64,000 nt of DNA, from the IMG/VR virus record IMGVR_UViG_3300012228_000003, positions 3,050-67,049 of that record; one strand, given 5' to 3'. The position numbers and the translations under genes were made by a program. A model generated the notes under the pieces. It searched no databases. It was given only the letters and a program-made list of their open reading frames with translations, and was not told where the DNA came from. Below, in pieces: positions 6,908-7,513 of the stretch. The stretch comes from a virus. Position 1 is the first letter of the stretch. Every line of letters starts with the position of its first letter.

Positions 6908-7085
6908 CGGGGATCGTCTCCAAGACTAGCTCGACCGGCCTCTCACAGACCGTCTCTGCCGGTCTGTGAGTGACGTCAACGAAGTAGTGTGCCCTTCCCT
7001 CAAAGTATCTCACCTTGCCGGAGTCCAAGGCTGGCTGGCTGGCTGGCTGGCCTATCGAATGCTCCATCCAGATTCTAACTCTCAT
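6888..7085 (-). CDS. Free-standing TRD-like mini-protein 3 with (AGCC)5 tract (in frame)
   Basis: DVTHRPAETV motif; AAGGAG RBS; tetranucleotide repeat near the 5' end. Confidence 0.5.
   Translation of the reverse strand: MRVRIWMEHSIGQPASQPALDSGKVRYFEGRAHYFVDVTHRPAETVCERPVELVLETIPDASVPN
7029..7051 (-). repeat. (AGCC)5 tetranucleotide SSR
   Basis: + strand ggctggctggctggctggctggc. Confidence 0.9.
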
Positions 7086-7295
7086 CTTGACTCCTTGAAC
7101 ACCGGACTGTCAGGCGGCTCGTTGACCAGGAGCGACGGGGGGGGGCAGGGGAACCGGCGAGCCGTCGTCAGTTTCGAGCCAGTATGCCACGTCGTTGAGA
7201 CTCATCGCCTGCACGGTGAAGCAGCACCTGACCGAGAGATCGAACCTACCCATTCCGTTGTTGTGCTTGAACTTCCCGCAGAGGTAGACCTTCAT
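7082..7295 (-). CDS. Free-standing TRD-like mini-protein 2, frameshifted at a C9 tract (currently stops at 7110)
   Basis: DLSVRCCFTVQA...YWLETDDG. With C8 the tail reads PPPSLLVNEPPDSPVFKESR and ends in an ATGA overlap with the next ORF. Confidence 0.6.
7137..7145 (-). repeat. C9 homopolymer (G9 on +)
   Basis: Direct reading. Confidence 0.9.
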
Positions 7296-7513
7296 CGCTT
7301 CACGTCCCTGAGAATCGGACTGTCAATCGGCTCGCTCAGCAAGAGAGAGAGAGGAGGACTGCCGACTGACTCTCCCTCGTCAGCGACCAGCCGCCAGTCT
7401 CCCTGGTTTCCGTCAGCGTGGCCTCTAGCATTGACGGTCTGGCAGGGGTCGTCAATCGAGGCTCTGCGCGGCTCTGACTCCTTGAACACTCGCAGCGAGA
7501 GAGCGAGGTGCAT
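7292..7513 (-). CDS. Free-standing TRD-like mini-protein 1 with (CT)6 tract (in frame)
   Basis: SIDDPCQTVNARG...WRLVADEG...PPLSLLLSEPIDSP; starts immediately after the cmoA stop. Confidence 0.6.
   Translation of the reverse strand: MHLALSLRVFKESEPRRASIDDPCQTVNARGHADGNQGDWRLVADEGESVGSPPLSLLLSEPIDSPILRDVKR
7342..7353 (-). repeat. (CT)6 dinucleotide SSR
   Basis: + strand agagagagagag, at the position homologous to the C9 tract of the paralog. Confidence 0.8.

Follow-up and report, generated by a model that had tools for sequence, protein, structure and literature searches.

The locus described here raises the question of whether short tandem repeats of different type, located at the same position in two adjacent small phage genes, serve as switches, and, if so, what is gained or lost with each change of reading frame. 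The original prediction was that the repeats control a shared C-terminal tail, with selection acting on the switching of a docking tail or of translational coupling. The window, i.e. the whole stretch of DNA that was analysed (64,000 nucleotides), comprises bases 3050-67049 of a contig of 67,049 bases, the first 100 bases of which reappear at 66,926 (genome C1 1-100 versus 66926-67049; an overlap of ∼120 nt). This overlap of the contig ends indicates that the genome is probably complete, the assembly being circular or terminally redundant. Because matches to PHROG families comprise both structural and replication genes (terminase subunits, tape-measure protein, family A DNA polymerase and primase-helicase, in addition to several DNA methyltransferases), the window is assigned on gene content to a tailed phage of ∼67 kb, the genome of which has a GC content of 60%. 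The runs containing the phage are freshwater-sediment metagenomes, and a DNA search of 50,697 phage records returned no cultured phage with similar DNA.

All of the genes under discussion are encoded on the minus strand. Directly upstream of the first small gene, referred to as mini-gene 1, is a cmoA-like gene for a Cx-SAM synthase (7515..8234; phrog_4752, E 4.5e-68), with a cmoX-like gene for a cytosine C5 transferase located further upstream (9194..11137; PF00145, E 3.6e-53), the ATG of which is preceded, at a distance of 7 nt, by GGAGGA. Downstream of the mini-genes is a gene for a 137-aa protein (6494..6907), which is 75% identical to a 132-aa protein in a related contig, L035. No match to a Pfam or PHROG family was found for this protein, which is read here, from its sequence, as a putative winged-helix regulator. 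A paralogue-like gene on the plus strand (8605-9141), again read as a putative winged-helix regulator, is divergent from it, and the two flank the cmoA/mini-gene block. The sole sigma-70-like site found (8657-8685, plus strand) precedes the 8605-9141 gene, and a promoter and terminator scan of the minus strand returned nothing. A 70-aa fragment of a GIY-YIG homing endonuclease (8328-8540, minus strand) sits just upstream of cmoA in a patch of low GC content (within 8200-8800; 0.47-0.51 versus ∼0.60 for the whole window). Additionally, small proteins encoded in the window (6035-6325, minus strand) and in L035 (1514-1888 and 1888-2199) end in ...DEEIPF or ...EEPIPF, similar to the acidic IPF tip that bacterial SSB carries, and may, we presume, mimic the SSB docking tail.

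The reading frames of the mini-genes were recomputed, and the frame relationships on which the original prediction was founded were reproduced in full. Mini-gene 1 (7292..7513; 73 aa) is preceded by AAGGGAG 7 nt before its ATG, and its C-terminus reads ...SPPLSLLLSEPIDSPILRDVKR (also given as PPLSLLLSEPIDSPILRDVKR). Its (CT)6 tract (7342..7353; (AG)6 on the plus strand), which encodes P-L-S-L-L, leaves the following tail (LSEPIDSPILRDVKR; 7295..7341) in frame, and the gene is on in this sense; gain or loss of one CT unit results in a stop after 1 or 5 residues. The stop codon of the tail overlaps the start codon of mini-gene 2 (ATGA). Mini-gene 2 as it stands (7110..7295; 61 aa) carries a C9 tract (7137..7145; G9 on the plus strand) within a Pro-Pro-Pro motif, ends ...PPPVAPGQRAA and has lost its tail, i.e. 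it is off. When read as C8, it ends PPPSLLVNEPPDSPVFKESR, and the tail that is otherwise out of frame (SLLVNEPPDSPVFKESR; 7082..7136) is restored together with a TGA sharing bases with the mini-gene 3 ATG at 7085. Mini-gene 3 (6888..7085; 65 aa), with AAGGAG 5 nt before its ATG, contains an (AGCC)5 tract near its start (7029..7048), where addition or removal of one unit leads to a stop after 5 or 8 residues. A homologue of mini-gene 3 (P0006) is 81% identical and has the same GQPASQPA; comparison of mini-gene 3 with the family formed by the other two mini-genes gave no indication of membership (hhalign E 0.21, probability 0.3%). These three tracts, and a G9 tract described below, all lie inside open reading frames and have units that are not divisible by three, and the computed frames indicate that a change of one unit at any of them toggles between a full-length and a truncated product.

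The C9 tract of mini-gene 2 is probably the true sequence as opposed to an assembly error, since contigs of two samples agree. Indeed, Logan contigs from two runs, X1 (possibly the source sample) and X2 (a different sample), match the window over 6954-7258 and 7298-7720 without a single difference or gap, all three mini-gene tracts being identical, and the uniform C8 that would have marked C9 as an error was not encountered. The depth of this material was 2.6-11.6 and it takes the form of contigs, in which minority length variants are invisible. Two further runs (X3 and X4) contain only short parts of the stretch, none of which is informative on the tracts. The truncated mini-gene 2 protein is on record from two contigs.

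Mini-genes 1 and 2 are tandem paralogues. Their products align with 19 of 47 residues identical (BLASTP, E 0.002), the DNA contains a 53-nt direct repeat that is 72% identical (7092-7144 versus 7305-7357), and the (CT)6 and C9 tracts occupy the same alignment columns; the two tails are homologous. The protein segment encoded at both tracts, Pro-Pro-(Pro/Leu)-Ser-Leu, is conserved and specified by pyrimidine-rich codons, and it is therefore at this conserved Pro-Pro-Pro motif that both paralogues grew pyrimidine repeats. The coincidence of two unrelated tracts at a homologous site, which had been advanced as evidence of selection, thus follows from the proline-rich motif without selection on the site having to be invoked. 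At the protein level, P0009, which is more closely related to mini-gene 1, has PPPDLL at the position where mini-gene 1 has PPLSLL. An exact 15-nt repeat is also shared between the end of the mini-gene 2 tail (7088-7102; PVFKES) and the N-terminal part of mini-gene 1 (7475-7489; RVFKES), which could be the result of gene conversion or of chance.

A family profile was searched against 1.84 billion proteins, returning 21 matches at E 0.001 or better, of which three were the query's own, one was a truncated form of mini-gene 1 (P0019), eight were small tail-bearing proteins (67-87 aa), one was a fusion protein (P0016) and eight were long repeat proteins. The last of these were rejected as relatives, the four that were inspected out of eight matching only on a short YWLE-like repeat. 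The family follows the pattern M.VWL ... PCPTV.A.G ... YWLE.D.G ... PLPPP.LL.DEP.DSPIF, and ten columns are invariant in a ten-row alignment (G31, P53, P54, L57, L58, E61, P62, D64, S65 and P66). Searches with the family against Pfam, PDB sequences and known folds returned no match (Foldseek best E 1.7; VIA-align best Z 2.4), and mini-genes 1 and 2 belong to a new and previously undescribed family of phage proteins of 60-87 aa. When the mini-genes, the 137-aa protein and the family were scanned for in viral, metagenome and genome contigs, only the contig of L035 was returned; in the scan with the tail pattern, 35 stretches matched, one of which passed confirmation against mini-gene 1. Eight viral contigs that match the tail DNA pattern were discarded as chance matches in unrelated contexts, as were two genome contigs (L041 and L042) with matches antisense to unrelated genes. 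A tblastn search with P0024 and P0022 against the 50,697 phage records gave no match.

The evidence that bears most directly on switching comes from L035. A search with mini-gene 2 read through its C run identified a 76-aa protein (P0004) with its tail in frame, 55% identical over 69 columns and encoded by the IMG/VR contig L035, as the mini-gene 2 orthologue. The gene order in L035 (the end of CmoA, mini-gene 1, mini-gene 2, a third small gene and the 132-aa protein) is syntenic with that of the window, at a DNA identity of 72-77% and a synonymous divergence of 0.9-1.5 across five flanking genes. In the window, mini-gene 1 has (CT)6 with the tail in frame and mini-gene 2 has C9 with the tail out of frame. 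Conversely, in L035 mini-gene 1 has (CT)7 with the tail out of frame, and mini-gene 2 has C8 (575-582) with the tail in frame. Both of the two comparable tracts therefore differ by one unit between these two lineages, with the tails intact, and slippage at the tracts has caused the lineages to differ in frame. That part of the original prediction which held that slippage toggles the tail is hence borne out by a natural sister sequence in the reverse state.

Up to the tract, both genes have evolved in the manner of functional coding sequence. In mini-gene 1, the residue is kept in 23 of the 27 codons of the pre-tract block, 11 changes being synonymous and the differences falling 2/1/13 on the three codon positions; in mini-gene 2, the residue is kept in 14 of 15 codons, with differences of 2/0/8. 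Since residues are kept and differences accumulate at third positions, mini-genes 1 and 2 are real genes under purifying selection as far as the tract. Moreover, the silent tail of mini-gene 2 in the window has the same residue as L035 in 12 of 13 aligned codons, with three synonymous changes, and both of the out-of-frame tails are free of stops and keep all seven family-invariant tail residues (LL, EP and DSP). In a simulation of neutral drift (20,000 trials), the seven residues were retained in fewer than 5% of trials at 0.2 or more substitutions per site, and the synonymous divergence per lineage is roughly 0.5. Taken together, the retained residues, the simulation and the per-lineage divergence place the time for which each copy has been out of frame at less than roughly 40% of the period since the two lineages parted, although this bound is loose. 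Conservation of the tracts themselves does not exceed that of synonymous sites elsewhere: in the C-terminal block of mini-gene 2, with Trp left out, 16 of the 26 codons for conserved residues are unchanged, a share close to the background of 53-61%.

A further copy of the family module is located ahead of cmoX. A 56-aa open reading frame (11118..11288, minus strand), the ATG of which overlaps the stop of a ParB-like gene (ATGA), has as its first 35 residues the N-terminal half of the family module (hhalign probability 81%, E 1.3e-5). A G9 tract (11182..11190, minus strand; C9 on the plus strand) lies in the Gly-rich loop of this leader module, and the second half of the module (GSYYIEEDG) runs in the +1 frame straight into CmoX. 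Since the frame that is continuous with CmoX is +1 (11288 minus 11194 = 94 = 3 x 31 + 1), a G8 tract would be predicted to fuse the leader module to CmoX, and with G9 CmoX can start at its own ATG behind GGAGGA. A natural fusion of comparable design is represented by P0016, in which two tail-less modules are fused ahead of a CmoX-like N-terminus (hhalign probability 94%), the P0016 cluster having four members on four contigs. P0016 and the metagenomic proteins P0025-P0027 (265-286 aa) each consist of two modules and a C5-methyltransferase-like protein; they seem, from their sequences, to lack the middle of the enzyme, passing from DGSPP straight to a PSPTV/motif IX-like region. When the family was compared with the part of C5 methyltransferases that precedes motif IX, the short P.PTV.A.GG stretch was the sole match (E 0.023 at a probability of 2%), and a second comparison gave E 0.0013 at a probability of 19% over 20 columns; PF00145 was hit by none of ten family members at E up to 10. 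Mini-genes downstream of CmoA were found in none of the seven closest loci (L001-L007, the best 7 of 26 relatives) and not in L040. What link there is to an enzyme points to CmoX rather than to the adjacent CmoA.

The distribution of repeats in the genome was examined also, a strong repeat being defined as a homopolymer of at least 9, a dinucleotide of at least 6 units or a tetranucleotide of at least 4 units. The whole 67,049-base genome contains five, namely (TA)6 at 4833-4844, (GGCT)5 at 7029-7048, G9 at 7137-7145, (AG)6 at 7342-7353 and C9 at 11182-11190, the last four being the plus-strand forms of the mini-gene 3 (AGCC)5, the mini-gene 2 C9, the mini-gene 1 (CT)6 and the leader-module G9, respectively. 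All five fall within 6.4 kb (window 4833-11190), and a stretch of 325 nt accommodates three of them. Order-3 Markov simulations (n = 150) gave on average 1.05 strong repeats per genome versus the five observed; one simulation of 150 had at least five, and none of 150 had three within 400 nt. The clustering of repeats exceeds chance. The (TA)6 tract is part of an AT-rich intergenic sequence, possibly a promoter region, which shows 85% conservation with L035 (∼3235-3250), where the tract is shorter.

These observations are best accommodated by a model in which the tracts are slippage-driven contingency switches beside phage DNA-modification genes, a reading to which a probability slightly above one half (∼0.55) is assigned. 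The argument for contingency derives from the reciprocal states of the two lineages, the intact silent tails, the presence of four tracts in one neighbourhood and the precedent of phage T2 agt. According to this model, Pro, Leu and Ser codons of the conserved core would have given rise to a C run in one paralogue and to a CT repeat in its neighbour, such that replication slippage shifts the frame just before the core; the protein is thereby turned off, and a further slip would presumably turn it back on. In the window phage, copy 1 would then be on and copy 2 off, with the reverse in the sister lineage. Two further candidate switches would follow the same pattern, i.e. the G9 tract between the third copy of the module and CmoX, and the (AGCC)5 tract in the unrelated mini-gene 3, with the tracts together constituting what may be a contingency (bet-hedging) locus attached to a DNA-modification module. 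Switching would, by this reckoning, be frequent, reversible and adaptive, and the mini-gene proteins would presumably act with CmoX.

The most serious alternative is that of ordinary decay, in which redundant paralogues are lost through frameshifts at mutational hot spots, a different copy being affected in each lineage, and no adaptive or reversible switching takes place. The on/off state within each lineage looks fixed: the window-type forms are each present on two contigs, the L035-type truncated mini-gene 1 (P0019) on six and the in-frame mini-gene 2 (P0004) on seven, and protein searches revealed no alternative-length proteins. This constancy, which is what decay would predict, speaks against a majority state that turns over very rapidly. 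Equally, the positions of the tracts can be explained by conserved Pro and Gly motifs, since C9, G9 and the CT repeat coincide with conserved Pro, Gly and Leu-Ser motifs, respectively, in a genome of 60% GC, and the tracts could therefore be by-products of codon use. The locus also turns over, the mini-gene 3 slot in L035 (643-810) being occupied by a different and unrelated Cys-rich gene of 55 aa, from which it follows that this position exchanges cassettes, and the looseness of the bound on out-of-frame time leaves room for recent loss. However, decay requires two independent and recent frameshifts, each of them at a repeat tract and in different paralogues, and additionally a third tract (G9) that splits another module copy, and yet a fourth one in neighbouring mini-gene 3. 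Nor is it readily reconciled with the retention of all seven family-invariant residues in both dead tails, or with repeat clustering far above chance. Decay is accordingly regarded as unlikely, albeit as the account that comes closest to the contingency model.

A second alternative retains the proposal made originally, namely that the tail acts either as a docking peptide that can be detached or as a translational-coupling device, so that the switch alters docking to the methyltransferase or translation of the next gene. In its favour are the ATGA overlaps from mini-gene 1 to mini-gene 2 and, with C8, from mini-gene 2 to mini-gene 3, the occurrence of a common tail in two paralogues with different N-terminal parts, and the existence elsewhere of a fusion between the module and a CmoX-like enzyme, suggestive of a physical connection with an enzyme of the methyltransferase type. 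Docking tails such as the SSB C-terminus and the clamp-binding motif are disordered and carry the motif either at their very end or in a flexible linker. The properties predicted for the mini-gene tail are otherwise. The PPxxLLxxEPxDSP stretch accounts for nine of the ten invariant columns of the family, and the residues that follow DSP[IV][FW] vary in length and sequence, so that the motif is not at the extreme C-terminus. In an AlphaFold2 model of P0004 built on an 11-row alignment (pLDDT 77.5, pTM 0.58), in which three strands are accompanied by a short helix in the tail, the tail block is the most confidently predicted (pLDDT 87); a model of mini-gene 1 on a three-row alignment reached a pLDDT of 41, and an ESM Atlas model of P0004 (pLDDT 0.42) gave no usable look-alike. 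The tail is thus the most conserved part of the family and, from conservation and modelling, the predicted C-terminal core of the fold, and because it is both the best conserved and the best modelled block it is more likely that its loss disables the protein than that it trims an appendage. Absence of mini-genes from the relatives of CmoA (none in the closest seven of 26 loci, or in L040) is a further difficulty for docking. With respect to coupling, the ATGA overlaps are its sole support, and the downstream genes have their own Shine-Dalgarno-like ribosome-binding sequences, with no occluding hairpin. Indeed, a coupling hairpin or other RNA structure was rejected, the RNAs of all four tail regions folding no better than shuffled controls and being less stable than these (z +0.5 to +2.6). 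Neither the docking tail nor translational coupling is upheld by these data, and this alternative is considered improbable.

Recoding was considered as a third alternative, whereby transcriptional slippage on the C9 and G9 runs, or ribosomal frameshifting, would still make a tail-bearing protein in addition to a short one. Runs of approximately nine identical bases are of the length at which slippage by RNA polymerase is known, and conservation of the out-of-frame tails is consistent with such a scheme. Against this, mini-gene 2 of L035 is a single frame (C8), so that the split arrangement is not conserved, none of the four tail regions has a stimulatory RNA structure better than shuffles, and a CT repeat in need of a 2-nt correction matches no known recoding signal; recoding is accordingly deemed very improbable. 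Finally, the notion that C9, (CT)7 or both arose as errors of sequencing or assembly in low-complexity DNA, to which the low coverage (2.6-11.6) and the reliance on contigs lend some weight, can be put aside as the least probable of all, given that the tracts are identical in two samples and that the corresponding proteins recur on two, six and seven contigs from several sources.

Contingency loci of the kind favoured here have precedents in phage and bacteria. The homopolymer loci of phage T2 agt and T4 rIIA (Gomez, Barrick and Waters, bioRxiv 10.1101/2025.10.21.683753) are, as here, frame-shifting repeats inside phage genes, and agt is described in the same preprint as a DNA-modification gene, the on/off state of which trades off between host restriction systems. 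The preprint deals with homopolymers only, the words "dinucleotide" and "tetranucleotide" occurring 0 times, whereas the present locus combines mono-, di- and tetranucleotide tracts in three adjacent genes, two of which are paralogues with the tract at the same codon position; the evidence here is comparative, as opposed to measured rates. In Campylobacter Fletchervirus, genes for receptor-binding proteins are reported to contain poly-G/C runs of 7-11 that generate subpopulations (Sorensen et al., Cell Rep 2021, as cited elsewhere). These resemble the present tracts in being hypermutable G/C runs in phage genes, but are described for structural host-recognition genes, and not for small non-structural genes beside DNA-modification enzymes. 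The contingency loci of Neisseria, Haemophilus and Campylobacter, including phase-variable methyltransferases (phasevarions), are described as switching between on and off frames by repeat slippage, and share with the present locus di- and tetranucleotide units and an association with DNA-modification enzymes. They are, however, features of cellular genomes, with tracts usually near the 5' end, whereas two of the tracts described here come three-quarters of the way along genes that are very short, immediately ahead of the conserved core. Among the papers searched, homopolymer loci of this kind were found in phages, but no phage locus in which the tracts are built of di- or tetranucleotide units or in which paralogues switch at a single position.

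The enzymes themselves correspond to the CmoA-CmoX-CmoY 5-carboxymethylcytosine system described for phage S-B43 (Yang et al., Nat Commun 2025, PMC12783734), which has in common with the window, and with L040, a ParB-like, CmoX and CmoA neighbourhood. The description of S-B43, in the part of that paper drawn upon here, is without small accessory proteins or N-terminal CmoX modules, and addition of the mini-gene family is seen only in the window lineage and a few metagenomic contigs. It can be suggested, tentatively and with doubt prevailing, that the proteins of this family serve CmoX as accessory subunits or as modulators, and that the four switches hedge DNA hypermodification against modification-dependent or modification-sensitive restriction. 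The proteins would then be free-standing in mini-genes 1 and 2 and, were the leader tract to be G8, fused to the CmoX N-terminus. If true, this arrangement would be a viral counterpart of the phase-variable methyltransferases of bacteria.

Phage contingency loci have been proposed only recently, and from homopolymers in laboratory coliphages. The locus described here would be a natural and uncultured example, in which paralogues are switched at one and the same codon by different types of repeat and a sister lineage is in the opposite state. A new family of small proteins, with ties to the newly described 5-carboxymethylcytosine system of DNA modification, is also defined by it, and it offers specific tracts at which deep environmental sequencing could measure phage bet-hedging directly.
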